Source: Candidatus Levyibacteriota bacterium (lineage in GTDB: Bacteria > Patescibacteriota > Microgenomatia > Levybacterales > UBA12049). Taken from it: a stretch of 64,000 nucleotides of DNA. The stretch spans positions 2,847 through 66,846 of the forward strand of contig JAGOPV010000004.1 of the NCBI GenBank assembly GCA_017991775.1. The letters are read 5' to 3'. The position numbers and the translations under genes were made by a program. Positions 14,786-45,064 of the stretch are shown one piece after another. The notes below the pieces were generated by a model. That model was given only the letters and a program-made list of their open reading frames with translations, was not told the origin of the DNA and searched no databases. Within the stretch, counting starts at the first letter, position 1, and every line of letters begins with the position of its first letter.

Positions 14786-16189
14786 ATGCTTCCCTCTAAA
14801 CTTGCCTTTGTCGATCTTGAGACCACAGGCATGAGGTCTCACTCAGATCGAATCATCGAAATAGGAATCATCCTTGTTGATGACGATAAAGTGAGTTCTA
14901 CCTACTCTTCACTTATTAACCCGGGTGCATATATTCCACCGTCAATTCAAGCGATTACTGGTATCACCCAAAGCGAACTTGAGACTGCTCCTTCTTTTCG
15001 TGAAATTCACGAAATCGTCGAAGAACTCTTAATAGATAGAGTATTTGTTGCACATAATGCACGTTTTGATTACGGATTTTTGAAAAGTGAGTTCAAAAGA
15101 CTCGAGAAGTCATTCTCGCCAAAGCAATTCTGCACAGTCAGATTCTCAAGGACACTCTTCCCGTCTCTCCCAAGACATAACTTAGACACCATCATAAATC
15201 ACTTCGATATTAAGGTTGAAAATAGACATAGAGCCCTTGATGATGCTCAAGCAACCTATGAATTCTTTAAAATTGCAAAAGAAAGAACCGACCCGCAGAT
15301 TTTTAAGACTGCCATCGAGAAAACACTCAAGAAGCCTTATCTTCCTAAGAATCTTGATCCACTCGTACTAGACGCACTTCCCTCGTCTCCTGGCGTCTAT
15401 GTTTTTTATGGAGACGACAACTTTCCCCTCTATATTGGCAAAAGTATCAATTTAAAAGATCGAGTCCTCTCACACTTCTCTGACATCCTCTCGCCTACTG
15501 AAATGAATATTAGTCAACAAATCACACGTATTGAAACGATAAAAACGGCAGGTGAGCTTGGTGCACTTTTTCTTGAATCAAGGATGATCAAAGAGCAACT
15601 TCCTCTCTATAATAAAATGCTTCGTCAAACCCAAGAACTTCTCATTCTCAAAAAGAATATCAATAAAGATGGCTACCTTACGACCTCACTCGAGCAGCTT
15701 CCCAGTACACAACTTCCTGATATGGAGAATAATCTCGGCATATTCCGCACGCGAAAACAGGCAAAAGAATCCCAAAGCGCGCTTTCGCTCAAGTACTCAC
15801 TCTGCGAGAAGCTCCTAGGATTGGAAAAAACAAATGGTGCCTGTTTTGGACATAGATTAGATAGATGCAAAGGGGCATGTATTGGAAAAGAAAATAGTCT
15901 TAGCTATAACATGAGATTCGTCGAGGCATTTAGCACACAACGCATAAAGAACTGGCCATTTGAGGGGAAGATCATAATCACTGAAAAAGATGAGCTTGAG
16001 GGTAAGACTGATTACTTCCTCATCGACAACTGGTGTCTATTGGGAAAGGTCCAGACTGACACAAATGATAGCTTTCTGGAAGATGAATATGACTATTCAT
16101 TTGATCTGGATACCTATAAAATAATCTGTCGATATATTCTTTCGACAAAAAATATTCACAGGATCAAAGCTCTACTCAACGATAACTGA
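14786..16189 (+). CDS. DEDDh 3'-5' exonuclease (DnaQ-like) fused to GIY-YIG nuclease domain (Cho/UvrC-N-like)
   Basis: N-terminal FVDLETTG...HNARFD...HRALDDA exonuclease motifs; GIY-YIG-like VYVFYG...LYIGKS...R in middle. Confidence 0.75.
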   Translation: MLPSKLAFVDLETTGMRSHSDRIIEIGIILVDDDKVSSTYSSLINPGAYIPPSIQAITGITQSELETAPSFREIHEIVEELLIDRVFVAHNARFDYGFLKSEFKRLEKSFSPKQFCTVRFSRTLFPSLPRHNLDTIINHFDIKVENRHRALDDAQATYEFFKIAKERTDPQIFKTAIEKTLKKPYLPKNLDPLVLDALPSSPGVYVFYGDDNFPLYIGKSINLKDRVLSHFSDILSPTEMNISQQITRIETIKTAGELGALFLESRMIKEQLPLYNKMLRQTQELLILKKNINKDGYLTTSLEQLPSTQLPDMENNLGIFRTRKQAKESQSALSLKYSLCEKLLGLEKTNGACFGHRLDRCKGACIGKENSLSYNMRFVEAFSTQRIKNWPFEGKIIITEKDELEGKTDYFLIDNWCLLGKVQTDTNDSFLEDEYDYSFDLDTYKIICRYILSTKNIHRIKALLNDN

Positions 16190-16612
16190 TCCAGTCATCT
16201 CCCCAACGGTATACGTGTACGTTCCTGCTGTTGTGAACATGTACGTCGACTTTTCTCCGTTTTCAAGATTAACGCTATCAAATGTTCCATTGTATGAAGT
16301 GACTTTATGATCAGCGGTACCAGCATTGATCCATGTGACCTGTGTACCAACAGGAACTGTAAGACTATCTGGAGTTACCATATCATCTGATATTGTAACG
16401 GTATTCTCGTCAGCAACTTCCTTGGTCATCGTTGCCGCTTCCTGCTTCATCATTGCGTATCTTCGTGCAACAGATGATCTTCCTAAGATCATAAGGATAA
16501 GAAGGATAACGATAAAACCACCACCAACAATAATCAAAAGTGAGTGCTCACCTGCAAGAGATGAATGTCCTTTAGATGCTGCTACTTTTGTCTTTTTTAC
16601 TTTCTTCGCCAT
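16172..16612 (-). CDS. Membrane-anchored cupredoxin-like domain protein (no Cu ligands evident)
   Basis: TM anchor then beta-rich VPVGTQVTWINAGTADHKV...GTYTYTVG domain; start set at second Met (16612) 9 nt after AGGTGG RBS. Confidence 0.5.
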   Translation of the reverse strand: MAKKVKKTKVAASKGHSSLAGEHSLLIIVGGGFIVILLILMILGRSSVARRYAMMKQEAATMTKEVADENTVTISDDMVTPDSLTVPVGTQVTWINAGTADHKVTSYNGTFDSVNLENGEKSTYMFTTAGTYTYTVGEMTGSVIVE

Positions 16613-16819
16613 AATAATCACCACCTTTAGAAGTTCTTGACGAATGCCTGTAAGGCAGAGTCTCTAGAACTTCTTAACCCCTCGAAGCGAATATTCGACT
16701 GCATGGCTGTAAGCCTTGAGGCGAACATGAGCGAAGTGGGGCTTCACATAATTATCATACATCAGCGGCTGAATAGCTTGTCAATGAGATGATTAGATAG
16801 GAGAGTTAGAAGTGGCGGC

Positions 16820-26302: not shown

Positions 26303-26623
26303 ATGGCTACAAAGCAATCAACTGTAGATTTTATTGCAGACCAAGTCTCGGGTGCTGGCGAGATCCGAACTCGCAAGATGTTTGGTGAGTATGCACTTTA
26401 TTGTAATGAGAAAGTTGTCGCACTTATTTGCGACGATCAATTATTTATTAAGCCAACCGAGCCAGGACTCAAATTCCTAGATGAAAGTCACGCCACTCCA
26501 CCATATCCAGGTGCTAAGGATTATTTAAAAGTACCAGAGGATAAATGGGATGACAGAGAATGGTTAGCTGATTTTATAAAGGCATCTGCAGACGTCCTCC
26601 CCGTCATCAAGAAGAAAAAATAA
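26303..26623 (+). CDS. TfoX N-terminal domain protein
   Basis: TfoX_N-like ...TRKMFGEYALYCNEKVVALICDDQLFIKPT. Confidence 0.65.
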   Translation: MATKQSTVDFIADQVSGAGEIRTRKMFGEYALYCNEKVVALICDDQLFIKPTEPGLKFLDESHATPPYPGAKDYLKVPEDKWDDREWLADFIKASADVLPVIKKKK

Positions 26624-26712
26624 ACTTAAGGGTAATTCTGTGGTAGAATCTGCGTGAACATTGACACGTTGACGTTAGTTATCATGCTGCGAGGCTAGAA
26701 GGTGAACAAATC

Positions 26713-27108
26713 ATGTTCTTGATACTGTTATTCTTACTGGCTTGTGCAGCTTGCTGCATAAAGTTCTCGCCGCCAGGCACAGGAATTAACAAATCCGGCA
26801 TGGTCGGAACCATCTTAGGATTAATTTTTGGACTCATGGTGGCTCTTTTTCTTGGAGCCTGGCAGCACCAAGAGTCTGTGACCAATAAAGTTCCTCTGGA
26901 GGCATCCAGCTTCGAAGGAACAGTTAGAATCAAAGAGGGAGATGTTAATTGGCCAACATTGGCCTTCACCGACAACCTCTGCGATGATGGTGATTGGGGA
27001 TGGGATCCACTTGATCTTTCCATCTCCAAATGGTGGTGGATCTGCATAGATGTAAACTCAGACGGCGTCCTTCTCGTTCCGAGGGGATATCTAGATCCAC
27101 CAAGCTAA
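26713..27108 (+). CDS. Small Cys-rich secreted/lipoprotein-like hypothetical protein
   Basis: Hydrophobic N-terminus LLFLLACAACC; followed by intrinsic terminator; leader shares CATTGACACGTT with the 34.5-kb array leaders. Confidence 0.5.
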   Translation: MFLILLFLLACAACCIKFSPPGTGINKSGMVGTILGLIFGLMVALFLGAWQHQESVTNKVPLEASSFEGTVRIKEGDVNWPTLAFTDNLCDDGDWGWDPLDLSISKWWWICIDVNSDGVLLVPRGYLDPPS

Positions 27109-27135: not shown

Positions 27136-27166
27136 CCCTGCGCCCCCTCTGGGCGCAGGGTTTTTT
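27136..27166 (+). terminator. Rho-independent terminator
   Basis: CCCTGCGCCC-cctct-GGGCGCAGGG hairpin then TTTTTT. Confidence 0.75.
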
Positions 27167-27865: not shown

Positions 27866-28387
27866 CTATTTATTATCAGGGATAAATTTAAGTGCTGAGG
27901 CATTGATACAGTATCTTTTACCGGTTGGCAAAGGCCCGTCATCGAAGACATGCCCTAGATGTCCGCCACATTTTTTACCAATAACTTCGATGCGCTTGAT
28001 GCCCCCTGAGTAGTCATCCTTCAAAATAACTGCATCCTCATTAATGGGTGCCCAAAAACTTGGCCACCCAGTTCCAGAATCAAATTTCTGTTCGGAGCGA
28101 AAAACTGGCTCATTACAGTCAGCAGTGACATATGTCCCCTTCTCATGATTCTCAAGCATCTCTTTATTGCTAAAGGGCACATCTGTTCCGCCTTCTCGCA
28201 AGACATAGTATTGTTGGGCTGTAAGCTTAGTCCTCCATGGATCATCCACTTCTGACACCTTTTTCTGTGACAATATTTGAATTGAGAAAAAACCAAGAAC
28301 TATAACAAGAAGAGTAACGAGGAGCACAGTGGTTCGATATTTAGGCTTTAGCAATATCATGGGTACTTTACCCAAACGTGAAAGCAA
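27866..28387 (-). CDS. msrB: Peptide-methionine (R)-S-oxide reductase MsrB, membrane-anchored/secreted
   Basis: SelR/MsrB motifs GWPSF, two CxxC pairs (CNEP...CGGHLGHVF), RYCIN catalytic Cys; N-terminal TM helix. Confidence 0.85.
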   Translation of the reverse strand: MLSRLGKVPMILLKPKYRTTVLLVTLLVIVLGFFSIQILSQKKVSEVDDPWRTKLTAQQYYVLREGGTDVPFSNKEMLENHEKGTYVTADCNEPVFRSEQKFDSGTGWPSFWAPINEDAVILKDDYSGGIKRIEVIGKKCGGHLGHVFDDGPLPTGKRYCINASALKFIPDNK

Positions 28388-30116
28388 ATGCTTGCACGCC
28401 TGGAGTCTTGAAGCGAAGCTCTAAAAGATGATTCCTTGTATTACCCTTCATATCCACAATGTCATAGAGCTTATCAGTAGAGACTGTCATGACTCCATCA
28501 GTTACGTCAAGTCCTGAGTGCTCTGGACTGATAACTTTCCCATCAATGAATACCTCGATCTTCCCGTCTACTGCTTGACCTTTTTTCAAAACAAGATAGA
28601 CATGTTCCCCAATAAAGTTATAAATGAGGGACGCATCATTACCGCTTTGCGAGAATTCATCCTGAACAGTCCAGTTACCAACGAATGAAAATTTATTCAG
28701 ACTAATGGTCTTGGGTCTCTCAAAATTTTGCTCACCAAGGTCTGCTTTTCCTCTTCCCTGAAGGTAAAGCATGCGTCCTGATCCTAGATATGTTTCTGGT
28801 GATGTCTGTGCTGTAGGAGTCTGATCACTCGTCTGAGAAATGCTCTCTTCGACGTCCTGTCCAGCCTCTTTGAGAAGTCCCTGAATAGCTTCTTCCATCT
28901 CATCGTACTTCCCTTCTCCAAAATGTGTCCTTCTGATGACTCCCTTGCTATCTATCAGGTACTCTGCAGGCCAATAAAGATTCTCATACGCATTCCATGT
29001 CGCAAAGTCATTGTCCTGTGCGACGGGATAATTGATCTTAAATTGCTTAATCGCATTTTGGACATTTGAAGTCTCTTTTTCGAATGCAAATTCTGGAGTG
29101 TGTACTCCTACGACCACAAAACCTTTATCTTTATACTTCTCATACCAACTTGTGACATGCGGCAACGTCCGAACACAGTTAATACAGGTGTATGTCCAAA
29201 CATCAACGAGCACAACTTTCCCCTTTAACTCCGCAAGCGTTAGGCTACTTTTGCCCTCAGGTAAGTTAAGCCATTTTGTAATTCCTACAAATTCTGGAGC
29301 TTTTTTATTTTCGTTATAAAGCGATGAGCTATTCTTAGTCGCAAAGCCCGAACTGTCGCCACGTAACTTGCGCAGCTCAGCGGTCACAGTGTCACTGGTC
29401 TCAAATCCGTTCAAAGCCGTAGCGAGCACTGGGAAGCGGTCAAGAAGCGCGATCTGGAGCTCTTTGTCTTTATTGGTATAGATTAGAAGAGCTGTAATAA
29501 TCATGATGACGCCAAAGACCTGCTGAATCCTGGCTGTATATTTATTAATCCCTCTTGCTTTCAACACGAATCGCTGTCCTCCGTAAGCAAATGCAAAAAG
29601 TGGTATTCCAACCCCTATGACATAGGCAAGTGTGACAAGTACAACTTGAATAGAGACATTACCAGTAGCTGCAAGTGCAGCAATCGACGCGAGAATTGGA
29701 CCTGCACATGGCGACCAGACAACGCCCAAAGAGAGTCCTGTCACAAATCCTGGGAGAAATTCATTCTGCTGTGCTTTGCCTGTCCTGTTAAAAATATTTG
29801 ATAGTCTCGATACGGCTAATTCGAACTTCACTGCTAGTGCAGGAACGACCATGGTCAGTCCCAAAAGAGCGATAATGATAACTGCGAAAAGCCTGATAAC
29901 ATTTGGATCAAGACCGAAAAGTGCGACAAGAGTTGAGACAGAAAGAGTAAAAATCAAAAAGCTAAGCATCACACCAATTGTGATTCCCAATGGCCTCTTA
30001 TGTCCGCCACCCCCCTGAATTGAAGAAGATAATACGATGGGCAGGACCGGCCAAATGCATGGAGCAAGAATAGTGACCAGTCCAGATAAAAATGCGAATG
30101 CAAGTAATAAAATCAT
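28368..30116 (-). CDS. CcdA/DsbD-like membrane thiol-disulfide transporter fused to TlpA-like thioredoxin and a C-terminal domain
   Basis: N-terminal DsbD_2 TM core with conserved Cys pairs, periplasmic thioredoxin fold with WTYTCINC active site. Confidence 0.75.
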   Translation of the reverse strand: MILLLAFAFLSGLVTILAPCIWPVLPIVLSSSIQGGGGHKRPLGITIGVMLSFLIFTLSVSTLVALFGLDPNVIRLFAVIIIALLGLTMVVPALAVKFELAVSRLSNIFNRTGKAQQNEFLPGFVTGLSLGVVWSPCAGPILASIAALAATGNVSIQVVLVTLAYVIGVGIPLFAFAYGGQRFVLKARGINKYTARIQQVFGVIMIITALLIYTNKDKELQIALLDRFPVLATALNGFETSDTVTAELRKLRGDSSGFATKNSSSLYNENKKAPEFVGITKWLNLPEGKSSLTLAELKGKVVLVDVWTYTCINCVRTLPHVTSWYEKYKDKGFVVVGVHTPEFAFEKETSNVQNAIKQFKINYPVAQDNDFATWNAYENLYWPAEYLIDSKGVIRRTHFGEGKYDEMEEAIQGLLKEAGQDVEESISQTSDQTPTAQTSPETYLGSGRMLYLQGRGKADLGEQNFERPKTISLNKFSFVGNWTVQDEFSQSGNDASLIYNFIGEHVYLVLKKGQAVDGKIEVFIDGKVISPEHSGLDVTDGVMTVSTDKLYDIVDMKGNTRNHLLELRFKTPGVQAFAFTFG

Positions 30117-30143
30117 AGTTATGTAATAAGTATATACCCTTTT

Positions 30144-30175
30144 GCTCTATCCACCAGGCGCCTGGCGGATAGAGC
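30144..30175. repeat. 32-nt near-perfect palindrome (GCTCTATCCACCAGGCG|CCTGGCGGATAGAGC)
   Basis: Read directly; lies between fasciclin gene stop and dsbD-like gene start; no adjacent T-tract. Confidence 0.8.
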
Positions 30176-30187
30176 CTCAATCCCCCA

Positions 30188-30775
30188 TTACTGAGGCATT
30201 AATACAGTATCAATAACGTGTGTCACGCCATTGGATGAGATAACATCAGCAATGTCAATCATAGCTGAATCGTTGATCCACCACTTACCATCTTTCATCG
30301 TGAAAGTAAGCATTTGACCGTTAACGGTCTTAAGAGTCATGCCTTCTGTTATATCAGAAGAGCGATATACTCCAGGAACAACGTGGTATGTCAAAATACT
30401 GGTAAGCTTAGCTTTATTCGCCGGCATTACGAGCGTATCAACTGTACCTGCTGGCAATTTAGCGAACGCTTCATTTGTTGGAGCGAAAACGGTAAATGGC
30501 CCGGTTCCCTTAAGAGTCTCAACGAGCCCTGCAGCCTTAACAGCAGCAACGAGCGTTGTGTGGTCATTTGAGCCTAATGCATTATCCACGATATCTTTAT
30601 CGGGAGTCATTAATGCTCCTCCAACCATAACTCCATCTTTATTCATGGAGTCATCTTGGGTAGTCATAGCTTTGTTCTCCATAGAGTTCTTTGTGTCACT
30701 TTTCATAGAAAAGACCATATAAGCTCCTCCAATTAGAACAACTGCTGCGATTATAATAAGAATCATTTTATTCAT
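30188..30775 (-). CDS. Fasciclin (FAS1) domain secreted protein
   Basis: TVFAPTNEAF and LTYHVVPG FAS1 motifs; N-terminal TM/signal. Confidence 0.8.
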   Translation of the reverse strand: MNKMILIIIAAVVLIGGAYMVFSMKSDTKNSMENKAMTTQDDSMNKDGVMVGGALMTPDKDIVDNALGSNDHTTLVAAVKAAGLVETLKGTGPFTVFAPTNEAFAKLPAGTVDTLVMPANKAKLTSILTYHVVPGVYRSSDITEGMTLKTVNGQMLTFTMKDGKWWINDSAMIDIADVISSNGVTHVIDTVLMPQ

Positions 30776-30816
30776 AATTTTTCACCTCCTTTCAATGTAG
30801 TTTACTAATATAATAT

Positions 30817-30840
30817 TTAACTTACTTAAGTATACTATAC
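30817..30840. promoter_or_regulatory. Candidate MarR operator copy 1 (TTTAACTTACTTAAGTATACTATAC) upstream of fasciclin gene
   Basis: About 24-nt block nearly identical to 31362-31389 upstream of marR; internal dyad AACTTAsTTAAGT. Confidence 0.5.
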
Positions 30841-30871
30841 AAAAAAACTGCACTGTCAAGAAAGAGTGTTC

Positions 30872-31339
30872 TTACACATTCGTATTCTTGACGATAGCAG
30901 TTAGCACTTTAAGATATATTAGAAGGTGTTCTCTACTCACGCCATCAAGCACTTGGGCCATCGCTTTTTTAACAAAAGGCTCAGCATCTTGAACAATCTC
31001 TGTACCACTTCTTGTTATAGTTATTATTTTCGCTCTCTCATCAATCTTATCTGCCTTGCGCAAAACATACCCTTTCTTCTCAAGTTGCTTAACAAGCTTG
31101 GTGACCATAGGAGGATCATAACTGAGGAGCTCTGCGAGCATGGAGAGTTTAACATCACCAAATTCATGAAGTTGACCTAAGAGCTTCCACTCTGGAATCG
31201 AGATGTTCATAGATGCAAGGGATCTATTTAAATGCGAATTTAGCCTGCTGTATGCTGTTCCCTGTAAAAGCCCTGCGCCATGTGCTGATAGCTGCATTGT
31301 CTTTGGATTAATGATCTTATCAAGTGATATATTTTCCAT
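30872..31339 (-). CDS. MarR-family transcriptional regulator
   Basis: Winged-helix MarR fold pattern. Confidence 0.8.
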   Translation of the reverse strand: MENISLDKIINPKTMQLSAHGAGLLQGTAYSRLNSHLNRSLASMNISIPEWKLLGQLHEFGDVKLSMLAELLSYDPPMVTKLVKQLEKKGYVLRKADKIDERAKIITITRSGTEIVQDAEPFVKKAMAQVLDGVSREHLLIYLKVLTAIVKNTNV

Positions 31340-31361
31340 TTTTATTTGCCTAACTAAATTA

Positions 31362-31389
31362 ATTAACTTAGTTAAGTATATTGTATAAC
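31362..31389. promoter_or_regulatory. Candidate MarR operator copy 2 (ATTAACTTAGTTAAGTATATTGTATAAC) upstream of marR
   Basis: Shares AACTTA(G/C)TTAAGTATA(T/C)T(G/A)TA(T/C)A with 30817-30840; overlaps the palindromic TTAACTAAATTAATTAACTTAGTTAA. Confidence 0.5.
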
Positions 31390-31458
31390 ACAGGGTTTTT
31401 TATGTCAAGCACCTTTGAGTAACTAGATCCTAGCGTCCAGCAGCTAGTAGCTTACTAG

Positions 31459-32964
31459 CTAGAATCCGGGGAAGTAATCGGAAATGATATTCTTACGCTG
31501 TACACCAACTGAAAGGAGCATGGCTTTATACCCCTCAACCATAGCATTTGGCCCTGAAAGGTAGTACATTCTCTTTGCAAAATTTGGGGTGTATTTTTTC
31601 AGCATATCTTTTGTGAGCCTTCCGCTCTCACCATGCACAGCTTCTCTTGTGGGAACATACATAGTCTTAAGTCCGTATGCCTCAGCCCTTGTAAAAATAT
31701 CTCTATAGACAAAGTCCTCCACAGTATTTGCAAAATAAAAAAGCGTGATATCTCTTTTCTCTTTTTTATCAATAAGGTATGCGGCCATACTCCTAAATGG
31801 TGTAATGCCAATTCCTCCTGCGATGAAGGTCATCTGAACTGTGGGGTCATTTGGGAGTGTAAAATCCCCGGCAAGCTGTGTCGCAATAATTCGAGCATCT
31901 TTGGTAAGTGAAAGTAGTTTCCTTTTAAAGCTACTGGATGATTCACTATCTACTCTAACTCCTAATTTAAGAGTCTCCTCAGTTGGAGATGAGGCTATAG
32001 TAAAAAAACGTCTTACTCCCCTGCTATCACTTTTAGGATGAGAAAGAGTCCATTCTAGATACTGCCCAGCTTTATATGTAAAACCCTTTGGCTTTATAAA
32101 AACGAATTCATAGATATTTGATGCTATTTTCTTAGAACTAATAACTGACAGAAATAGCTTATATTTTGGACCGACAAGATATGAATAAATATTACCAAGA
32201 ACAAGTGCTAACTCTGGCGAGGAATATATCGGCCCTAGCTCAAATCGAATACTAAAAAGCAATCCAACAAGAACCCCGTAGCTCATGTAGAGTTTTTTTG
32301 TTGGCGGCGTTGTCATTGGCTCGGTCAACATGATAGACCCAAAAAATAGTAACGGCCATGATGTAAGAATCAGAACAACCGATTCATTGATGGACACACC
32401 TTGTGCAATATTTAAAAAAGTTAGCACTGGAATAGCGATCAAGGCGAAAGAGAAGAAGAGATGAAATCTTCGTATCTTTCTAACGACCAAGAGACCAAAA
32501 CACAATGTAAATGGTAAAAGAGCAGCGCTCCCAACCCACCAGATAGCGTTCCCAAAACCAAATAGTCCAAGCAGAAAAAGCGAAATAGCCACAGGATTAA
32601 AAATATGCCTCTTGTTAATAGCCAGTAAATATTTGGATACTGAAGCAAGAACACCTGCAACAAACGTGATATACACATCTGTCATGCTTGCAATTGGTGC
32701 AAGGATGAGAAAGAGAATCATCCCTGTAATGATGTAAGATTCAACGTTAGTCGTCGCTTTGAAGAAACGAGCGAGTATCACATGTGAGACCCAAACTCCT
32801 GTCATCACAACAAAATAAGTCTCAATCATAGCAAAACCAGAATATGAGAGGACACCTAAGAAGCCAAAAAGTACTGAGATACAGGACAGGATCAGCAAGC
32901 CATGCATTACAAGCTTATACATCGTAATTTGATTCAGGAACGAGTCGATAAAAGACAGCCGCAT
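31459..32964 (-). CDS. Integral membrane oxidoreductase with C-terminal FNR-like FAD/NAD(P)-binding domain
   Basis: About 8 TM helices then RRFFTIASSP (FAD RxYS-like) and GGIGITPFRSM (NAD-binding GGxGxxP) motifs. Confidence 0.7.
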   Translation of the reverse strand: MRLSFIDSFLNQITMYKLVMHGLLILSCISVLFGFLGVLSYSGFAMIETYFVVMTGVWVSHVILARFFKATTNVESYIITGMILFLILAPIASMTDVYITFVAGVLASVSKYLLAINKRHIFNPVAISLFLLGLFGFGNAIWWVGSAALLPFTLCFGLLVVRKIRRFHLFFSFALIAIPVLTFLNIAQGVSINESVVLILTSWPLLFFGSIMLTEPMTTPPTKKLYMSYGVLVGLLFSIRFELGPIYSSPELALVLGNIYSYLVGPKYKLFLSVISSKKIASNIYEFVFIKPKGFTYKAGQYLEWTLSHPKSDSRGVRRFFTIASSPTEETLKLGVRVDSESSSSFKRKLLSLTKDARIIATQLAGDFTLPNDPTVQMTFIAGGIGITPFRSMAAYLIDKKEKRDITLFYFANTVEDFVYRDIFTRAEAYGLKTMYVPTREAVHGESGRLTKDMLKKYTPNFAKRMYYLSGPNAMVEGYKAMLLSVGVQRKNIISDYFPGF

Positions 32965-32965
32965 A

Positions 32966-33844
32966 TTATGTAGTATAGTAAAGTTCTCCTGGAAAGTCTG
33001 TGGACTTTTTGATACTAAAATCAGGATAAAGAAGGAGGTATGAGAATGAAAATTTTTCTTTCAAGCGATCTGGCTCTACTAAAAATAATGCAGTTGCAAG
33101 AGCATCGGCTGTGATCGCTCTATCAGCAATTACCCATGATGCCAAGATATGACTTGCAGATGAAAGTGTGCGAGGATCAAGAATATGATGGAATTTCCCC
33201 CATTTACGTCTATTACCAGCTGATGCACAGATGCTTTGATCTTTAAGCTGCACAACGCCAATTACCTGACTTAGGTCTTCGGGGTGCTCAAGTCCAATAC
33301 TCAGAGGGAATGATGGATTTTTATAGAGAAGATCTCCCCCTGCATCTATGCAGTATGAATGAATACCTTGCTCTTCAAGATAATTTGCAACCAGATCAAT
33401 GAGATGGCCTTTTCCAAGAGCACCAAAATCAAGCAGTGCGGGTTTTTTGAGAGTTAAGAGTGGAAAATCGTAGTCTATCGCCTCATCCCAGCCATAAGGC
33501 TTTTGTATTTCTTTTTCCCCAAAAGAATAGGAAGCGTCGTACCCGGCATCACTGATAACTGAGCCAATAAGCGGCGTCATTGCTCCATCTGTCAGATCAT
33601 ACATGGTTCTGTAGAGATCGAGCATTTCTTTCGCATCTTTATCTAAAGTGTATTCACCAGCCTTCTTTGACCATATTGTGACATCGGAATCAGCACGAAA
33701 CCGTGAGTACTTTTGATCAAAGCCCTCAACTAATTCAAGAATATGCTTTTCAAGAAAAGCGGCTACTCTCGGATCAAGACGTGGCAGATGATCTATCACC
33801 CACTTGGTACCTATCGCATCAAATACGAATTGGGATGAGCTCAT
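32966..33844 (-). CDS. apbE: ApbE-family FAD:protein FMN transferase
   Basis: ApbE-like sequence pattern through the core (DAGGDL...); located between FNR-like reductase and FMN-binding protein. Confidence 0.7.
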   Translation of the reverse strand: MSSSQFVFDAIGTKWVIDHLPRLDPRVAAFLEKHILELVEGFDQKYSRFRADSDVTIWSKKAGEYTLDKDAKEMLDLYRTMYDLTDGAMTPLIGSVISDAGYDASYSFGEKEIQKPYGWDEAIDYDFPLLTLKKPALLDFGALGKGHLIDLVANYLEEQGIHSYCIDAGGDLLYKNPSFPLSIGLEHPEDLSQVIGVVQLKDQSICASAGNRRKWGKFHHILDPRTLSSASHILASWVIADRAITADALATALFLVEPDRLKEKFSFSYLLLYPDFSIKKSTDFPGELYYTT

Positions 33845-34311
33845 GCTTTGGCTTCTGTTTTCACTTTCTCAAGTGCATCCATGAATCCTTTTGGAGTTAG
33901 AGAAGATCCAGCAACCTTGGTCAACTGTACTTCATCAATCTTTTTGCCAACAACCATCGGCTTAAATCCTTCTGCGAACTCCCCCTGGAATCTCTTTGAG
34001 GGTGCATCTGTGGCACTACCTTCAAAAGTTGAGTCAGTAACAACATCTCCTTGCAGCGTCACTGTAATATTTACCTCACGTGGGCCTCCTGGCGAAACGT
34101 AGTTACCAACGACACTATATGTACCATCTTTATAAATACCTGTAGTAGCAGAGTCTTGTGTTGGAGCCGTAGTCACCTGATCTGAAACTGCACCAGATGG
34201 GACAGTTGAAGATTTTTGAGTCGTATAGAAGAAAATCACTGCGACTGCAATGATTGCAACGACGGCAGCGGGAAGTACGAACTTCATCATAGAATTATTT
34301 TGTTCATCCAT
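33841..34311 (-). CDS. Membrane-anchored FMN-binding (FMN_bind) domain protein, probable flavinylation substrate
   Basis: TM anchor, FMN_bind-like domain with candidate flavinylation site KVAGSSLTPKGF. Confidence 0.6.
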   Translation of the reverse strand: MDEQNNSMMKFVLPAAVVAIIAVAVIFFYTTQKSSTVPSGAVSDQVTTAPTQDSATTGIYKDGTYSVVGNYVSPGGPREVNITVTLQGDVVTDSTFEGSATDAPSKRFQGEFAEGFKPMVVGKKIDEVQLTKVAGSSLTPKGFMDALEKVKTEAKA

Positions 34312-34555
34312 ATAAAATCACCCCCGTTAGAAGCTCTTGCTCTTTTTGTAAAGCAAAAAAGCTTAGAGATTCTTACGTCCCTCATAGTGAACTTTCGGCT
34401 GCATGGCTGTAAGCCTTGAGACGAACGTGAACGACGTGGGACCAAGCCTACTTAGAGTAGCGTAGATTCTTAAGATATCCTAAGCACTACTATATGTGAA
34501 GGTAGTATACAAACCATTTCGTCTTCGTGCAACTGAAAAAAACCTATAGGTTTGC

Positions 34556-34620
34556 TATAATCCCCTTGTTCATTGACACGTTAGGATCGAATCAGGCTAA
34601 CGCCTGGAAAGGACAGGACC
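34556..34620 (+). promoter_or_regulatory. Conserved promoter -10 (TATAAT) plus 5' leader, copy A of 3
   Basis: TATAAT 34556-34561 followed by CCCCTTGTTCATTGACACGTTAGGATCGAATCAGGCTAACGCCTGGAA, identical to copy B. Confidence 0.6.
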
Positions 34621-35088
34621 ATGATCTATCCATTGGTCTTAGTAGTCATCTTTGTTCTTGCCTTTGGCAAGCTCTTCAAGCATTCGAGCTTCAAAGATAT
34701 GACTACTCTTGCGAAAAAGATCTGCTCTTACAGCCTGGGAATTGTATTTGGTGGACTCCTAGGAGTCTTCGTTGGACTTCTTTTGGACAACATCTCCCCA
34801 GCAAGTGAGATTCGCAGCGTTCCCTACACACTAGATCAATTCTCCTCGCCTAAAGGAACGCTTGTTTTTGTGGGCGAGGAGTATGTCTGGTATCTGCTCA
34901 ATGGAGAGGAGAAAAAGACACATCTAAGTGCTGTCGAATTCGTTGAGGCCGACTCGGCAACACTTACCGTACAAGGAGAATACTGCATGCGAGACTTTTG
35001 GTCAATCCTGCTGCGAGGATTTTGTTTCGGCAACGAAACATTTGTCTTCGAAGTTCCACCAGAATCCATTCATCAATTCAAAACCTAA
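34621..35088 (+). CDS. Small membrane protein, array paralog 1 (2 TM + about 90-aa beta-rich C-domain)
   Basis: 155 aa; own promoter/leader and terminator; architecture shared with 35245 and 35886 ORFs. Confidence 0.6.
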   Translation: MIYPLVLVVIFVLAFGKLFKHSSFKDMTTLAKKICSYSLGIVFGGLLGVFVGLLLDNISPASEIRSVPYTLDQFSSPKGTLVFVGEEYVWYLLNGEEKKTHLSAVEFVEADSATLTVQGEYCMRDFWSILLRGFCFGNETFVFEVPPESIHQFKT

Positions 35089-35112
35089 CATCAATCAACC
35101 CAATAATCACAC

Positions 35113-35145
35113 CCCGTCCCGCTAAGCGGGACGGGGTTTTTCTTT
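35113..35145 (+). terminator. Rho-independent terminator (conserved module)
   Basis: CCCCGTCCCGCTAAGCGGGACGGGG hairpin then TTTTTCTTT. Confidence 0.8.
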
Positions 35146-35179
35146 ATCTCATCGCTTGTCCTACGCCTTCAGAATATAC

Positions 35180-35244
35180 TATAATCCCCTTGTTCATTGA
35201 CACGTTAGGATCGAATCAGGCTAACGCCTGGAAGGAGTACCAAA
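35180..35244 (+). promoter_or_regulatory. Conserved promoter -10 plus leader, copy B
   Basis: TTGTCC-18-TATAAT then leader identical to copy A over about 50 nt. Confidence 0.6.
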
Positions 35245-35739
35245 ATGATCAATATTCTTTTTGGAGCTAATCTCGGTGTGCTTTTTTGCATTTTCGCTAG
35301 GCTCTTTATCGGGCCTCATCCAGTAGATAATCGCGAGATTAAAGGTTTGGCAGTATTTGGAGCAATCATTGGAACTATTATCACCCTAGTTGCGTCACCA
35401 TGGATTCTGGATAGAGGACCAATGTCCAACGAATCCAAGATCTATCCCATATACCGCCTCCATGACCCCGCCAATGGTCCGTATCTCATCCTTCAACGGG
35501 ATGGCGAATATGTCGCAGACATCGACATAAAGGAAGGGGTCCAACTCGTTCCTATACCTACATTGACGAACTATCATCTCGAAGTGATAATTGCACCACG
35601 TGATGATGCGATCGCAATCGTATCAACAAATAGGTGCATTAACAGAATCACACTCTGGACAATCTGCTGGAGGAGCACCACGGAGGTCACCTATCGAATT
35701 CCGACTGGAACGCAACTTGACCTCCTCTCGTCAACCTAA
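35245..35739 (+). CDS. Small membrane protein, array paralog 2
   Basis: 164 aa; 2 TM + C-terminal domain; flanked by conserved promoter and terminator modules. Confidence 0.6.
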   Translation: MINILFGANLGVLFCIFARLFIGPHPVDNREIKGLAVFGAIIGTIITLVASPWILDRGPMSNESKIYPIYRLHDPANGPYLILQRDGEYVADIDIKEGVQLVPIPTLTNYHLEVIIAPRDDAIAIVSTNRCINRITLWTICWRSTTEVTYRIPTGTQLDLLSST

Positions 35740-35762
35740 CAATCAACATCTTTCATCCATAC

Positions 35763-35797
35763 CCCGTCTCGCATTATGCAGGCGGGGTTTTTCTTTA
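35763..35797 (+). terminator. Rho-independent terminator (diverged copy)
   Basis: CCCCGTCTCGCATTATGCAGGCGGGG hairpin then TTTTTCTTT. Confidence 0.7.
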
Positions 35798-35830
35798 TCT
35801 CATCGCTTGTCCTAAGCCTTCAGATTATTC

Positions 35831-35885
35831 TATAATCCCCTTGTTCATTGACAGATCGTTGCAAGTCACTTGAAGGGAGTAAAAA
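35831..35885 (+). promoter_or_regulatory. Conserved promoter -10 plus leader, copy C (3' half diverged, alternative hairpin CAAG-tca-CTTG)
   Basis: TATAATCCCCTTGTTCATTGACAG shared, then divergent. Confidence 0.5.
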
Positions 35886-36320
35886 ATGCTCTATCCTATC
35901 ATTGGCATAATCATAGGATTAGTCCTAGCATCAATTTCAAGCACACTGAGTGAAATTCTGGGCAAATGGCTAACCGTCCTCCTGTGCGTCGCCTGCACAT
36001 TTATTCTAGGTGCATATATTGGTACATATGCACCACATGATCAACGCAACAATGTATCTTATCTTTCTCCACATCCAATTTCCGAAAATACTCTTATCAT
36101 CTACAATCAGGGTGACGCCTGGTTGTTCATTGATGGAAAGCTTCGGACCATTGGGAGCGAGAAGGTCCATCTCAATCCAAAAACGGAAGGGGTTCTCATT
36201 GAATCCGAAAGAGGCTGCAATAGCAACTTCCTAACACTCTCCATCTGGAGTCTTTGCGACGGAAGTACTGAATTCAAAGTCGAAATTCCAGACGAGTCGG
36301 TGACATATTCACTCGAGTAA
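35886..36320 (+). CDS. Small membrane protein, array paralog 3
   Basis: 144 aa; 2 TM + C-terminal domain. Confidence 0.6.
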   Translation: MLYPIIGIIIGLVLASISSTLSEILGKWLTVLLCVACTFILGAYIGTYAPHDQRNNVSYLSPHPISENTLIIYNQGDAWLFIDGKLRTIGSEKVHLNPKTEGVLIESERGCNSNFLTLSIWSLCDGSTEFKVEIPDESVTYSLE

Positions 36321-36349
36321 TTTCTTTGGATTTCCCGACAACCAGCATC

Positions 36350-36378
36350 CCGTCCCGCTTAGCGGGACGGGGTTTTTC
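36350..36378 (+). terminator. Rho-independent terminator (conserved module)
   Basis: CCCGTCCCGCTTAGCGGGACGGGG + TTTTTCTTT. Confidence 0.8.
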
Positions 36379-36382
36379 TTTA

Positions 36383-36428
36383 GTTTCATTGGGGGTTCAA
36401 CCCCTAACTTGATACAAGGACAGGGGTT
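36383..36428. terminator. Second long hairpin (AGGGGTTCAACCCCT ... AGGGGTTGAACCCCT), likely terminator for convergent minus-strand gene
   Basis: Two 15-nt arms, exact reverse complements, 17-nt loop. Confidence 0.55.
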
Positions 36429-36441
36429 GAACCCCTGAAGA

Positions 36442-37596: not shown

Positions 37597-38199
37597 TTAA
37601 GATTCATCAACATAGTATCGGATCTCCTCATTTTCAGGATCAAGGAGCTCATAAAGATATGTGATGTCTTCATCTTTGTGACGAATACACCCTAGACTTC
37701 CTTCATTTTCACTAGACAACTTATCCTCATTCCCAGCAACTCCATGGAGGCCAAAAAACCCTGGCTGCACCCAGTCACATTGTGCATTCTCACCAGAAAC
37801 GGGATCAATACACTCTTCATAAGGCGTGGGTCCATAGGGCCAGTCTATACCTGAAGGTATATCAAGTGTTAAGAAATATGGAGCGGTATCAGGATTATCG
37901 CTAGAGCTCTCTTTCTTGATAATCTTCCAATACTCTCTCCCCATCAAGCGTGGCAATGGCGTAGGGCTCTTCCCATCTATCCCTGTCTTAACTTGAAATA
38001 CACGTATAATTTGACTATGATTAGCATCTCCTGGCGTGCCCTTATATAATGTTTCTGTCTGAGATGTTCGAGCTAATCTTAGCCAGTACTTTGCAGGCAC
38101 AATCATTTCTTCTTGATGAACAAAACTTTTATGGAAAACAAAAATACTACCAATAATAAAGACCAGACCGAATATGAAAATGAAATACCTCAAACGCAT
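37597..38199 (-). CDS. L,D-transpeptidase (YkuD domain)
   Basis: YkuD catalytic motif GLHGV...SLGCIRH with Cys nucleophile; N-terminal TM. Confidence 0.75.
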   Translation of the reverse strand: MRLRYFIFIFGLVFIIGSIFVFHKSFVHQEEMIVPAKYWLRLARTSQTETLYKGTPGDANHSQIIRVFQVKTGIDGKSPTPLPRLMGREYWKIIKKESSSDNPDTAPYFLTLDIPSGIDWPYGPTPYEECIDPVSGENAQCDWVQPGFFGLHGVAGNEDKLSSENEGSLGCIRHKDEDITYLYELLDPENEEIRYYVDES

Positions 38200-39354
38200 C
38201 AGAATTATCTTAGCAAAAGAGGCATCATATTTACACTAATTGGGCTTTTTCTCACAATACTTTTGGCTGTCCATTTTTTTTCCACTTTTATCCATGAGAT
38301 CGAGATGTCGCCCGATGGAAAGCGTGTCATCCTCCCCTCTCGGCAAAATTCGAATGAAACAAATCGTCCGACAACTTTTCCAATTGCAACGAAAAATCAG
38401 AGCTCATTCCCTCCGACTCCAGATCAGAAGGTCCTAGCCAACTCATATCACATTTTCCAGTCATTTAATAATTGTGGTCCGGCTGCCCTCTCTATGGCAC
38501 TTTCTTATTTTGACATCTCTGCAACTCAGGCTGAGTTGGGCCAGGCACTTCGCCCGTATCAAAATCCAAATGGTGATAATGATGATAAATCGGTAACACT
38601 TGAAGAAATAGCTACATACGCAAACGAAAAATATGGACTCACAGCATATCGTCGACCAATGGGAGACATGGCAACGATCAAACAATTTATCGCAAATGAT
38701 ATTCCCGTGATCACAAGGACATGGCTTAAACAAGATGACGACATCGGTCATTTTCGAATTATAAAAGGCTATAACGATACAAGGGGCATTATTATCCAAG
38801 ATGATTCATATCAAGGGAAAAATCTCGAATACACGTATGATGATTTTATGTCTATCTGGAAAAAATTTAACTATGAATACCTCGTCCTTGTACCTAAGAA
38901 CAAAGAAAGCGTAGCGAAATTAATTCTCAATGAGAACATTGACGAGAAAATAGCATGGCGTCGTGCTATCACTAACTCTGAAAAAGATCTCAAAATAAAT
39001 CCCAATGACTTCTATGCAGGATTTAATTTATCCGTAGCATATTATGAAATTGGCTACTATCAAAAATCAGTAGAGGAGTATGAGAAAATTAAAGAAATAC
39101 TTCCATTTCGAACACTTTGGTATCAAATTGAACCTTTAAAAGCTCTCTATGAGATCAAAAGATATGACGAACTTCTAGATATCACTGGAAGAATCCTTTC
39201 AAATCAAAACAGAGCGTACTCTGAGCTCTATATCATCAGAGGTGATATCTATAAAGCCCAGAATAACACCACCCTTGCTCGAGCAGAGTACGAAAAAGCC
39301 GTCCAGTATAATTCTCACCTTACTCTTGCCCAAAATAAATTAGACTCACTTTAG
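38113..39354 (+). CDS. Peptidase C39-like (papain-fold) domain protein with C-terminal TPR repeats
   Basis: NCGPAALSMALSYF Cys motif, His in DDIGHFRIIKGY; TPR-like C-terminus; 5' end overlaps divergent ldt gene so start uncertain. Confidence 0.65.
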   Translation: MMNKTFMENKNTTNNKDQTEYENEIPQTHQNYLSKRGIIFTLIGLFLTILLAVHFFSTFIHEIEMSPDGKRVILPSRQNSNETNRPTTFPIATKNQSSFPPTPDQKVLANSYHIFQSFNNCGPAALSMALSYFDISATQAELGQALRPYQNPNGDNDDKSVTLEEIATYANEKYGLTAYRRPMGDMATIKQFIANDIPVITRTWLKQDDDIGHFRIIKGYNDTRGIIIQDDSYQGKNLEYTYDDFMSIWKKFNYEYLVLVPKNKESVAKLILNENIDEKIAWRRAITNSEKDLKINPNDFYAGFNLSVAYYEIGYYQKSVEEYEKIKEILPFRTLWYQIEPLKALYEIKRYDELLDITGRILSNQNRAYSELYIIRGDIYKAQNNTTLARAEYEKAVQYNSHLTLAQNKLDSL

Positions 39355-40926: not shown

Positions 40927-41493
40927 GTGTATAATAGATCCATGGACACACAATATGAGACCGCAACGTTTGCAAATGGCTGCTTCTGGTGCACTGAAGC
41001 GATCTTTCAAAGACTCAAAGGCGTAAAATCAGTCAGCCCAGGATACACAGGAGGTACGACTGTTAACCCATCATACGAAGATGTATGCAACGGCAACACG
41101 GGTCATGCCGAGGCTCTTCAGATCGTCTTTGATCCAAGTGTGATCACCTACGAAAAACTTCTTGATGTCTATTGGCACACTCATAACCCTACCACTCTCA
41201 ATCGACAAGGTAATGATGTTGGAACTCAGTACAGATCTGTGATCTTTTATCAAAATGATAGACAAAAAGATGCAGCAGAGAAATCCAAAATGGAACTAGA
41301 AGAATCTGGATATTATCCAGACCCAATTGTCACCAAGATCGAACCACTTAATGCATGGTTCGCAGCTGAAGATTATCACAAGGACTACTACAACAAGAAT
41401 GGATCAGCTGGCTACTGCTCAGTGATCATTGATCCAAAAGTGAGGAAATTTATCGCTGAATACTCTCAGGACGTTCAAGATAAGTATAAATAG
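40927..41493 (+). CDS. msrA: Peptide-methionine (S)-S-oxide reductase MsrA
   Basis: GCFWCTE active-site motif. Confidence 0.9.
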   Translation: MYNRSMDTQYETATFANGCFWCTEAIFQRLKGVKSVSPGYTGGTTVNPSYEDVCNGNTGHAEALQIVFDPSVITYEKLLDVYWHTHNPTTLNRQGNDVGTQYRSVIFYQNDRQKDAAEKSKMELEESGYYPDPIVTKIEPLNAWFAAEDYHKDYYNKNGSAGYCSVIIDPKVRKFIAEYSQDVQDKYK

Positions 41494-43645: not shown

Positions 43646-45004
43646 CTATTTTTTAATAAATGTGAGGAAGTCGTCCTGCATTTTTTGCATTTTTTCTTTC
43701 TCCATATTCGCAATCATCAGCATCGCTTCATCAGATCGCTTAAGAAAATCACGATCAACTTCTGCGATATCTGGATTGACTGTCAGAGCAATGTTATTCA
43801 TCCCCATCAATCTTAGACCATTCAAATTTCTCAAGCGAGATAGCGCGACATACCCTTGTCCTGGCACAAAAGAACGGGAGAGATCGACCTCAGCCGCGTC
43901 CAACGACATACCTTGTGACTTATGCACTGTGATAGCCCAAGCAAGCCGAAGTGGGATCTGGCTGATCGCAGCCACAACATTTCCTTGTCCTGAGCCTGTC
44001 GCAGGATCTTCTTTAACTTCCCAACTCGAAGCATCAACGATGATCTCTGCCCCATCAAAAGTACGGACCTTTGGGTGTCCTTCTTTATCAAAACCTATTA
44101 CTTCTCCCAGTGTACCGTTGACATACCCTACATCCCAATTGTTCTTCACGAACATCACCTGGGCTCCAACTTTTAAGGACAACCTTTCTGGAGCTAGGCA
44201 GGTTTTTCGTAAAGTTTCAACGATCTTGGGACTACCTCGACCTACCATTAAGAAGTCATGTGACTCGCCCTTAAGTTCATCAAGTTCTTTTTTATTAATT
44301 GCATCAACATCTGCATTATGTGTGAACAATTTTGTCGGCTTAGAATACCCTTCTGGATTTTTATCAAGACGCTCTGAGAGAACTTCAACAGTATCTTCAT
44401 TAACCTCTCCAGATCGAATATCACTGAGAACTCGCAAAAAGGATCTATCGCTTTGCCTGAACTGCTCATCTAGATAGCAAATCTGTAGACGCATGTTATT
44501 CCAGACTTCTGCATCAATAACATAGGAAGGCTTCTCACCACCTTTCACGACAGGAGGAAGTTGAAAAAAATCCCCACACATGATTACTTGCATCCCGCCA
44601 AAAGGCTCATAATTTCGCTTAAAGCCTCTACATATTGCATCCACAATATCGAGCTGGTGTGCATGAAGCATCGAGACTTCGTCAATGATCAGGACCTTAG
44701 CAAGCAAAAATCTTTTTCGAAGGTATGACCTCTTCATAAGATCATGGATTTCAGGAGTAGTGATCGTGTCTTTTATCCCCATCCCCGACCAGCTATGAAT
44801 AGTCGTCCCACCCATGTGAGTTGCTGCAATTCCAGTTGAGGCTGTAATACCAACGCTCACTTTTTGCTGCTTAAGATAATCTATATATTGATTGAGCAGA
44901 TGTGTTTTGCCACTTCCAGCAGGACCTGTGAGATAGACATTATGCCCTAGCTTGAGCAGATTGAGGGCATCTTTTTGTGTCATAGGAGAACAGTAGTATA
45001 GCAT
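43646..45004 (-). CDS. Pif1/RecD-family SF1 helicase
   Basis: Walker A GPAGSGKTH, motif II IIDEVSM, Pif1-like GDFFQLPPV; start ambiguous because 8-nt repeat supplies ATGs in all frames (ORF track 45052). Confidence 0.8.
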   Translation of the reverse strand: MLYYCSPMTQKDALNLLKLGHNVYLTGPAGSGKTHLLNQYIDYLKQQKVSVGITASTGIAATHMGGTTIHSWSGMGIKDTITTPEIHDLMKRSYLRKRFLLAKVLIIDEVSMLHAHQLDIVDAICRGFKRNYEPFGGMQVIMCGDFFQLPPVVKGGEKPSYVIDAEVWNNMRLQICYLDEQFRQSDRSFLRVLSDIRSGEVNEDTVEVLSERLDKNPEGYSKPTKLFTHNADVDAINKKELDELKGESHDFLMVGRGSPKIVETLRKTCLAPERLSLKVGAQVMFVKNNWDVGYVNGTLGEVIGFDKEGHPKVRTFDGAEIIVDASSWEVKEDPATGSGQGNVVAAISQIPLRLAWAITVHKSQGMSLDAAEVDLSRSFVPGQGYVALSRLRNLNGLRLMGMNNIALTVNPDIAEVDRDFLKRSDEAMLMIANMEKEKMQKMQDDFLTFIKK

Positions 45005-45059
45005 GACTGCATGACTGCATGACTGCATGACTGCATGACTGCATGACTGCATGACTGCA
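45001..45059. repeat. 8-nt tandem repeat (GCATGACT) x about 7.4 overlapping the helicase start region
   Basis: Read directly; each unit carries an ATG on the coding (minus) strand. Confidence 0.9.
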
Positions 45060-45064
45060 AAATT

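Follow-up and report, generated by a model that had tools for sequence, protein, structure and literature searches.

A tandem array of small membrane-protein cassettes in Candidatus Levybacteria: a probable strain-variable site under fixed control DNA

In the 64,000-nt (64-kb) stretch of a Candidatus Levybacteria chromosome analysed here (contig JAGOPV010000004.1 of assembly GCA_017991775.1, hereafter the window), three open reading frames (ORFs) on the same strand, A, B and C, make up three units that appear monocistronic, each framed by nearly identical control DNA. Levybacteria belong to the Patescibacteria, or candidate phyla radiation (CPR). We conclude that the locus is probably a strain-variable cassette site, at which whole cassettes are swapped by homologous recombination under fixed control DNA. 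An earlier reading of the letters alone (the sequence-only reading) had proposed cassette-like shuffling of the ORFs or diversifying selection on them, a conserved hairpin in the leader, and an echo of the leader at an unrelated gene. The shuffling is supported by the data presented below, while the diversifying selection, the hairpin and the word 'unrelated' are not.

Each cassette is predicted to comprise a consensus -10 box, 17 fixed nucleotides around the start of transcription, a ~50-nt leader carrying a good ribosome-binding site, the ORF and a strong intrinsic terminator (Table 1). The 23-mer TATAATCCCCTTGTTCATTGACA has exactly three copies in the window (34556, 35180 and 35831), one before each ORF, against 0 expected from shuffled sequences. 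Upstream of A and B, 55 nt are identical, from CTATAAT through the GGAA of the ribosome-binding site; all three copies agree over the first 24 nt, and the leader of C shares no more than these with the other two. The internal junctions (terminator T-run, spacer, -10 box and TTGACA) are 96% identical over 71 nt (35132-35202 versus 35783-35853) or, counted from the stop codons, ~85% identical over 125 nt, and the internal promoters have the -35-like TTGTCC, spaced at 18 nt. A and C end in terminators with 95% identity and a common perfect 12-bp hairpin (type T2); that of B is of a different type (T1), which is also the type found behind the orthologues of B in related lineages. All three hairpins are followed by GGGGTTTTTCTTTA (three occurrences versus 0.04 expected).

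When the coding DNA of A, B and C was compared by blastn, no match was obtained (best E-value 0.09). The original impression that the units have their own near-identical promoter/leader and terminator, and that the regulatory DNA is better conserved than the coding DNA, is therefore confirmed. At the protein level, A and C are 22% identical over 152 aa, that is from end to end (E 6e-9), and by this comparison are clearly homologous; B and C match with an E-value of 0.004, and A and B give nothing. The ORFs, of 155, 164 and 144 aa, had been described as barely alignable, with two transmembrane (TM) helices and a C-domain of ~90 aa. A B-type profile aligned to an A/C profile (hhalign P 1.7e-4) over 48 co-linear C-terminal columns with the motif C-x(9-13)-C...(I/V)P. 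In A, B and C, as in a further gene, D, described below, two hydrophobic helices occupy the first ~55 residues, and behind them comes an acidic domain, 84-114 residues long, that contains two cysteines; the C-domain of ~90 aa is beta-rich in both AlphaFold models, which are of low confidence. By the positive-inside rule applied to cassette A, whose loop contains four Lys/Arg, the C-domain would lie outside the cell. A domain that faces outward and is disulfide-bonded is suggested by the loop charge of A together with the acidity of the C-domains and their conserved cysteine pair, and we infer that the proteins may be strain-variable surface proteins; neither family searches, structure models nor neighbouring genes pointed to a more specific role.

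The three ORFs are intact, each has a good ribosome-binding site, and among the six frames the annotated one scores best by codon usage for every cassette and for gene D. The GC content at third codon positions (GC3) is 43-49% in the cassettes compared with 38% in 26 reference genes from the window; the cassettes also have a lower codon score than these, and this composition fits exchange between lineages. For the orthologues of B, the ratio of nonsynonymous to synonymous divergence (dN/dS) is 0.22-0.36, and in the core of the C-domain 8-10 nonsynonymous codon changes stand against 10-19 synonymous ones, indicating purifying selection; neither dN/dS nor the codon-change counts revealed positive selection within B. 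Ongoing diversifying selection within a type, as first suggested, is accordingly not seen. A, B and C have the appearance of expressed, selected protein genes rather than of decaying repeats.

The array lies between an operon on the other strand to its left (a 156/162-aa flavin mononucleotide (FMN)-binding-like protein, ApbE, a ferric-reductase-like protein and MarR) and an alpha/beta hydrolase gene to its right, which is convergent on the array. All recovered relatives have the locus at this one site. To its left, the 156/162-aa gene with ApbE, and to its right, the hydrolase gene, are present in the window and in the recovered contigs L002, L018, L019 and L022, and the content between them varies. 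In the window and in a second assembly (GCA_020047435.1, contigs L001 and L020) the arrangement is P-A-T2-P-B-T1-P-C-T2, where P is the promoter. In L018, B (88% identity) is located directly behind the first promoter, and the contig ends at T1. In L019, L002 and L022, which represent one lineage, P-B (82%) is followed by a 61-aa two-TM gene, T1 and the hydrolase gene, and L021 has P-B (50%) and then the 61-aa gene. The latter gene (L019 5016-5083; L021 806-991; L022 reverse strand 897-1082) begins ~60 nt after B in L019, L002 and L022. In the relatives it encodes nothing but the two TM helices, has no promoter or terminator of its own, and stands where the window has cassette C. The possibility that it is a truncated cassette was considered and rejected, its similarity to the cassettes being of the TM type only. 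In L002 a gap of 101 N (3224-3324) starts exactly after TTGACA and, judging from the content of L019 and L022, hides a B-type gene and part of the 61-aa gene. It should be noted that L002 (CAZHKZ010000015.1) is labelled 'uncultured Gammaproteobacteria'; being syntenic with the Levybacteria locus, with flanking genes ~80-90% identical, it is probably mis-binned.

The divergence of the cassettes is discordant with that of their flanks. Between the window and L018, four flanking genes have a synonymous divergence (dS) of 0.60-1.10 and dN/dS of 0.02-0.13, compared with a dS of 0.18 for B, and a 60-nt identity profile gives ~0.77-0.88 in the flanks, 0.95 in the promoter block and 0.88-0.97 in B. 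Between the window and L021, the upstream intergenic DNA is 92.5-95% identical, and B is 50% identical with a dS of 1.3, at which synonymous sites are saturated. The identity profiles change at the promoter/leader block. Replacement of alleles or cassettes predicts just this pattern, in which divergence extends over whole ORFs, synonymous sites included, and stops sharply at the regulatory modules. In addition, the leaders of A and B in the window are 100% identical and carry CGTTAGG and the loop TAAC, whereas the leaders of the B orthologues have GTCAGG instead, with the loops AGAT, TTTT and TAAA; bases shared by A and B and absent from the orthologues of B point to conversion or co-transfer within the array. 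As far as can be judged from sequence divergence, the discordance between cassette and flanks indicates allele exchange by homologous recombination and not hypermutation in place; we infer recombination in the flanks from these profiles rather than from an observed event. With a fixed site, varying gene content and discordant divergence, the cassette-like shuffling first proposed is supported.

The proteins belong to an orphan family. Protein A is a hypothetical protein of a Candidatus Levybacteria metagenome-assembled genome in NCBI and matches only itself in 5.8 billion proteins. An exhaustive HMMER profile search of 1.84 billion representative proteins returned A, a variant of C differing by 2 aa (from the second assembly), one B-type protein (E 1e-12) and two borderline repeat proteins (E 1e-4), which we regard as spurious. 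No orthologues of A and C were found beyond near-identical strains. No family was found in Pfam, PHROGs, PADLOC, NCBIfam or a PDB profile search, with Pfam, PADLOC and NCBIfam giving no match for any of A-D; neither the family profile run against viruses nor tblastn against phages gave anything; and scans of metagenomes and viruses with a 19-mer of the leader gave only chance matches with unrelated flanks. In a scan of genome collections only the relative L002 matched. Homologues of the hydrolase at 70-73% identity (L023-L026) have neither the cassette locus nor synteny, which confines the locus to a narrow clade.

A mechanism that would account for these data is the following. The cassettes would represent discrete types that diverged long ago, with purifying selection acting on each. 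Through the conserved promoter/leader and terminator modules, every cassette would come under the same expression control, and the same modules would serve as homology arms for the replacement, addition or deletion of whole cassettes by homologous recombination. Incoming DNA could be the substrate, which is plausible because Patescibacteria carry competence machinery: natural competence and genetics based on homologous recombination have been shown in this group, specifically in cultivated Saccharibacteria (PMC10633639), and competence genes are enriched in Patescibacteria (review PMC11665869). Transformation would then be the route, and unequal crossing-over between junction copies would be another. 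The lineage of the window would have accumulated three cassettes, with relatives holding one or one and a half. The existence of discrete types that are conserved within each type suggests selection for type diversity at the cell-surface interface, as in surface antigens, receptors and immunity proteins; such selection may be frequency-dependent.

Several points weigh against this interpretation. Only four or five related lineages were recovered, most of them on short contigs ending in or near the locus, and the arrangements catalogued are few. For A and C there is no orthologue anywhere; their transfer is deduced and not seen, and competence has been demonstrated in Saccharibacteria, not in Levybacteria. 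Since the promoter block is conserved between species at a dS of ~1, part of the identity in the flanks of the cassettes reflects functional constraint and not recent recombination. The 32-nt spacer of the junctions has no significant similarity to the flanks of the array: its alignment scores are no better than those of shuffled sequences (p 0.2-0.9), its descent by degeneration from either ancestral flank, upstream or downstream, was rejected on these grounds, and, no source of the spacer having been detected, the model does not account for the first terminator-promoter junction. As regards the proteins, the homology of B to A and C is probable and weakly supported; AlphaFold runs with alignments of three and six sequences gave pLDDT (predicted local distance difference test) values of 56.7 and 43.9, which are no evidence for a fold; and the loops of B, C and D are nearly uncharged, the topology being read from A only.

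Among known systems, the best-supported class is that of a strain-variable site of the 'minimal mobile element' (MME) kind, described in Neisseria (Saunders & Snyder 2002; Snyder et al. 2007; definition in PMC3082526). As in MMEs, fixed flanking genes enclose a whole-gene content that differs between lineages at the same site; no dedicated recombinase was found in the 64 kb, and exchange would proceed through homologous recombination in a lineage with competence genes. Unlike the genes of MMEs, the cassettes share one protein architecture and can accumulate in tandem, and the homology arms would include, beyond the flanking genes, the promoter/leader and terminator that are carried by the cassettes and repeated in the array. 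What sets this locus apart is that the cassettes' own promoter/leader and terminator are the conserved, repeated homology; tandem accumulation is allowed by the cassettes being self-contained transcription units with such modules.

The variable surface lipoprotein loci of mycoplasmas, namely vsp in M. bovis, vpma in M. agalactiae and vsa in M. pulmonis (PMC2268961), are similar in being tandem loci for membrane-anchored proteins with a conserved 5' untranslated region and very divergent coding sequences. In those loci, however, the conservation reaches into the signal peptide, whereas here the N-termini are divergent and A-C have no lipobox. Moreover, the genes of the mycoplasma loci point in both directions and depend on a single promoter, and inversions are driven by an Xer-like recombinase encoded next to them; in the present array each of the three genes has an intact promoter, all in one orientation, and the scans of the window found no recombinase. 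Expression of the vlp genes of M. hyorhinis, which encode repeat-containing lipoproteins, switches through the length of a poly(A) tract between -35 and -10. Like the cassettes, the vlp genes are arranged in tandem, each with a near-identical promoter region and a divergent C-terminal part (surface-exposed in vlp); they are reportedly the subject of work by Yogev and colleagues in 1991 and by Citti and Wise in 1995. In contrast to vlp, a run of seven A (34539-34545) is present here in the first promoter only and not in the internal ones, and its length is the same in four lineages, so that there is no sign of slipped-strand switching.

The same data can be set against an explanation without any exchange, in which A, B and C are old tandem paralogues that arose by two ancient duplications, their ORFs drifting in place while purifying selection held the flanks. 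The near-invariance of the promoter block even at a flanking-gene dS of ~1 would agree with this, and so would the architecture and co-linear motifs common to A, B and C. We nevertheless consider it unlikely, because it leaves unexplained both the low dS of B (0.18) between flanks at 0.6-1.1 and the B of L021, 50% identical behind a flank that is 92-95% identical. Nor does it explain why A and C are missing from relatives that keep B in first position, why the leaders of A and B share derived bases that the B orthologues lack, or why the spacer, not itself an obvious functional element, is identical between junctions at 29 of 32 positions.

A functional alternative, compatible with the recombination model, is that the cassettes form an immunity or protection array, for example against polymorphic toxins, bacteriocins or phage, and not a set of receptors or host-interaction proteins. 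Tandem, strain-variable and highly diverged small membrane proteins are typical of immunity-gene collections, and the present locus resembles orphan immunity-gene arrays in its tandem, small, highly diverged and membrane-bound proteins of discrete types, which vary between strains through recombination. A C39-like peptidase/TPR gene is located 1.8 kb away (38113-39354); the gene also occurs, however, in distant relatives that lack cassettes (L023). None of the scanned window ORFs had a toxin, bacteriocin, Rhs/LXG or secretion-system domain, PADLOC gave no match, no phage relatives were found and there is no similarity to known immunity families; each gene here has, in contrast to such arrays, a complete promoter and terminator. 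This function is improbable on balance.

More speculatively, and with a small chance of being correct, the invariant block CTATAAT-CCCCTTGTT-CATTGACA, which precedes every cassette and has an echo at gene D, could go beyond a promoter and be the target of a recombinase or regulator encoded in trans, in an integron-like system of self-promoted cassettes for exchanging surface modules. Chromosomal integron arrays, such as those with the VCR (Vibrio cholerae repeat) elements of Vibrio, have intergenic repeats of ~120 nt with dyad symmetry between dissimilar ORFs, and the array shares with them similar intergenic repeats, dissimilar ORFs, a single orientation and strain-variable content. Pfam scans of the window ORFs of at least 100 aa, however, found no integrase, recombinase, transposase or reverse transcriptase, and thus no domain of the intI kind; attI and Pc are likewise missing. 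Integron attC sites are imperfect palindromes (R''/L''/L'/R'), whereas the 3' element here has the form of an intrinsic terminator, its perfect GC stem of 12 bp being closed by a 3-nt loop and followed by a T-run (no attC model was run), and integron cassettes are generally promoterless, whereas those of the array carry their own TATAAT and -35-like hexamer and belong to one architectural family. If this reading were true, an ultrasmall episymbiotic CPR bacterium would be collecting alternative surface modules, for example for host or phage recognition, and both the protein family and the cassette mechanism would be previously undescribed. The features of a diversity-generating retroelement were not found either: no reverse-transcriptase domain was found in the window, there are no coding-region repeats, and the divergence spans whole ORFs including synonymous sites.

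Still less probable is site-specific recombination proper, with the 5' block or the terminator palindrome as the target of a recombinase encoded elsewhere in the genome, which would excise, insert or reorder cassettes much as in integrons or the vsp/vpma loci, except that the cassettes bring their own promoters. The identity breaks off sharply, its left boundary being CTATAAT and its right boundary TTGACA for C and the ribosome-binding site for A and B, and the 17 invariant bases after the -10 box exceed what a promoter requires; in vpma, the recombination sites are located in the conserved 5' untranslated region, at -1 to -72 from the start codon (PMC2268961). Against this, the ORFs of at least 100 aa scanned in the 64-kb window yielded no domain of a tyrosine or serine recombinase, integrase or transposase, the copies are without exception direct repeats with an intact promoter, unlike in single-promoter inversion systems, and the junction, a perfect GC hairpin with a T-run, is terminator-like rather than attC-like.

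It is very improbable that the array is an assembly artefact in which allelic variants of co-existing strains were chained through shared flanks. Contigs of several assemblies do break in or beside the repeats, and the gap of L002 begins exactly after TTGACA. However, the 32-nt junction spacer occurs nowhere else in the window, and an assembler cannot invent it; moreover, the second assembly contains flank-A-terminator-spacer-promoter (L001) and B-terminator-spacer-promoter-C-terminator-hydrolase (L020), at 99.7-100% identity to the window, so that it is only for the A-to-B link that one contig is the sole source. A decaying non-coding repeat with unexpressed ORFs, one of the outcomes that the sequence-only reading had named as fatal to its own proposal, might explain why A and C have no orthologues beyond near-identical strains, but it is hardly credible given the intact ORFs with their ribosome-binding sites and best-of-six frames, the similarity of A and C at the protein and not the DNA level, and the dN/dS of B.

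The control DNA can also be considered in its own right. The block GTGCAACTGAAAAAAACCTATAGGTTTGCTATAAT, and likewise the block from GTGCAAC through TTGACA, is almost invariant in four lineages; the neighbouring genes have a dS of ~1, and a promoter would need fewer than the 17 fixed bases that follow the -10 box. Together with the echo of CATTGACACGTT at gene D, we read this as a candidate operator or 5'-end RNA determinant common to these genes, for which the MarR of the divergent operon (30872-31339) is one candidate regulator. TTGACA, which had been placed directly after the -10 box, actually begins 11 nt after it; its interpretation as the -35 box of a downstream promoter was rejected, as no -10-like hexamer is found 16-18 nt downstream in any copy.

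The leader hairpin CGTTAG...CTAACG of the earlier reading did not hold up. The fold of the leader is no better than that of shuffled sequence (z -0.96 and -0.84), and the minimum-energy hairpin is CAGGC-UAAC-GCCUG and not CGUUAG...CUAACG. The CAGGC/GCCUG stem persists with four different loops and the CGUUAG...CUAACG stem keeps one compensatory pair, but neither stem exceeds the controls and there is no convincing covariation; no Rfam covariance model reached its gathering score against the leader, the matches being at chance level (E up to 5). The leader of copy C, for which a different hairpin had been noted, has a small stem of its own, CAAG-UCA-CUUG.

Table 1. Features of the cassette array and of gene D (positions in the window).
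Feature	Position	Strand	Description
Promoter P1 of cassette A	34533..34561	+	-35-like CTGAAA, 17-nt spacer with A7 run, TG-extended -10 TATAAT (34556-34561); consensus scan 10/12 with TG
Repeat copy 1 (-10 box and A/B-type leader)	34555..34609	+	identical to 35179-35233
Start-site-proximal box CATTGACACGTT	34571-34582	+	within repeat copy 1; 12-mer count
Small stem CAGGC-UAAC-GCCUG	34593-34606	+	within the A leader; fold
Cassette A ORF, 155 aa	34621..35088	+	two TM helices, K-rich loop, acidic C-domain with Cys122 and Cys135
Terminator of A, type T2	35111..35146	+	12-bp GC-rich stem, 3-nt loop, then TTTTTCTTTA
Internal junction 1	35147..35185	+	32-nt spacer with -35-like TTGTCC (35156-35161), then -10 TATAAT (35180-35185)
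Leader of B	35186..35244	+	equals the A leader up to the ribosome-binding site
Cassette B ORF, 164 aa	35245..35739	+	same architecture; sole cassette with orthologues (88%, 82%, 50% identity)
Terminator of B, type T1	35762..35797	+	imperfect stem CCCCGTCTCGCATTATGCAGGCGGGG, then TTTTTCTTTA; read from the sequence, not listed by the consensus scan
Internal junction 2	35798..35836	+	32-nt spacer, 29/32 identical to junction 1; -35-like TTGTCC, then -10 TATAAT (35831-35836)
Leader of C	35837..35885	+	matches the A/B leaders only up to TTGACA (35853); own stem CAAG-UCA-CUUG immediately upstream of the ribosome-binding site
Cassette C ORF, 144 aa	35886..36320	+	same architecture; nearest relative is A
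Terminator of C, type T2	36347..36382	+	array end
Gene D, possible outlying member	26644..27108	+	TAGAAT-N9-CATTGACACGTT, then 131-aa ORF (26713-27108)

Gene D, which adjoins a TfoX_N gene (26303-26623), is where the leader echo had been noticed. The 12-mer is indeed present, at 26659 and at the same 9-nt distance from the TAGAAT box as in the cassettes, and by our own estimate ~0.008 exact matches of this kind would be expected in 128 kb. The gene encodes two TM helices and an acidic C-domain with two Cys, and has its own, different terminator (27136-27166). Its homology to A-C is not significant (hhalign probability 2.7%; hmmsearch E 0.1-0.4), and it was therefore rejected as a provable member of the family; as it shares the architecture of A-C, the description 'unrelated' is nonetheless doubtful.

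A second element was observed in the leaders of other genes of the window. It is ~80 nt long and occurs on the minus strand at 34371-34450 and 16671-16750, in the 5' leaders of the FMN-binding-like/ApbE operon (start 34311) and of a cupredoxin-like gene (16624..16172), and also at 17-96 (minus strand) of L021; L018 and L019 have a different leader where the element stands in the window. The two copies of the window are 75-80% identical with an invariant core of 30 nt and form a 24-bp imperfect hairpin with three compensatory pairs (z -2.4), without a match in Rfam. This is a candidate new cis-regulatory RNA, possibly tied to redox or metal sensing.

In the interval that separates the array from the convergent hydrolase gene lies an inverted repeat, GGGGTTCAACCCCT-N16-AGGGGTTGAACCCC (36392-36435), each arm of which is itself nearly palindromic. 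It is kept in L002 and missing in L022, and may be the terminator of the hydrolase gene or a protein-binding site. The array is surrounded by extracytoplasmic redox and repair genes (27866-34311 and 40927-41493), comprising MsrB, a DsbD/CcdA-thioredoxin fusion, fasciclin, MarR, the ferric-reductase-like protein, ApbE and the FMN-binding-like protein, with MsrA further to the right. Nearby cell-wall enzymes include a weak YkuD-like match (below the Pfam cut-off), a beta-lactamase-like protein and the C39-like peptidase with TPR repeats. Elsewhere in the window (43646-47509 and 53574-58479), a PIF1-like helicase, a bacterial type IB topoisomerase and a type I restriction-modification pair with a fused HsdM-HsdS are encoded.

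Patescibacteria live on other cells, and the surface molecules that set their range of partners and their exposure to phage are almost unknown. The locus is a compact and recognizable site at which related lineages keep different sets of membrane-anchored proteins under one fixed control module. If they are surface-exposed, the cassette proteins may be factors of interaction or protection that are specific to a strain. With the conserved 23-mer and the terminator, there are handles for recovering cassette repertoires from metagenomes by polymerase chain reaction or read mining, and the search for regulatory DNA that is more conserved than the ORFs it flanks is a general way to find such sites. 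The locus is, finally, a natural test of the share of homologous recombination in shaping CPR genomes.

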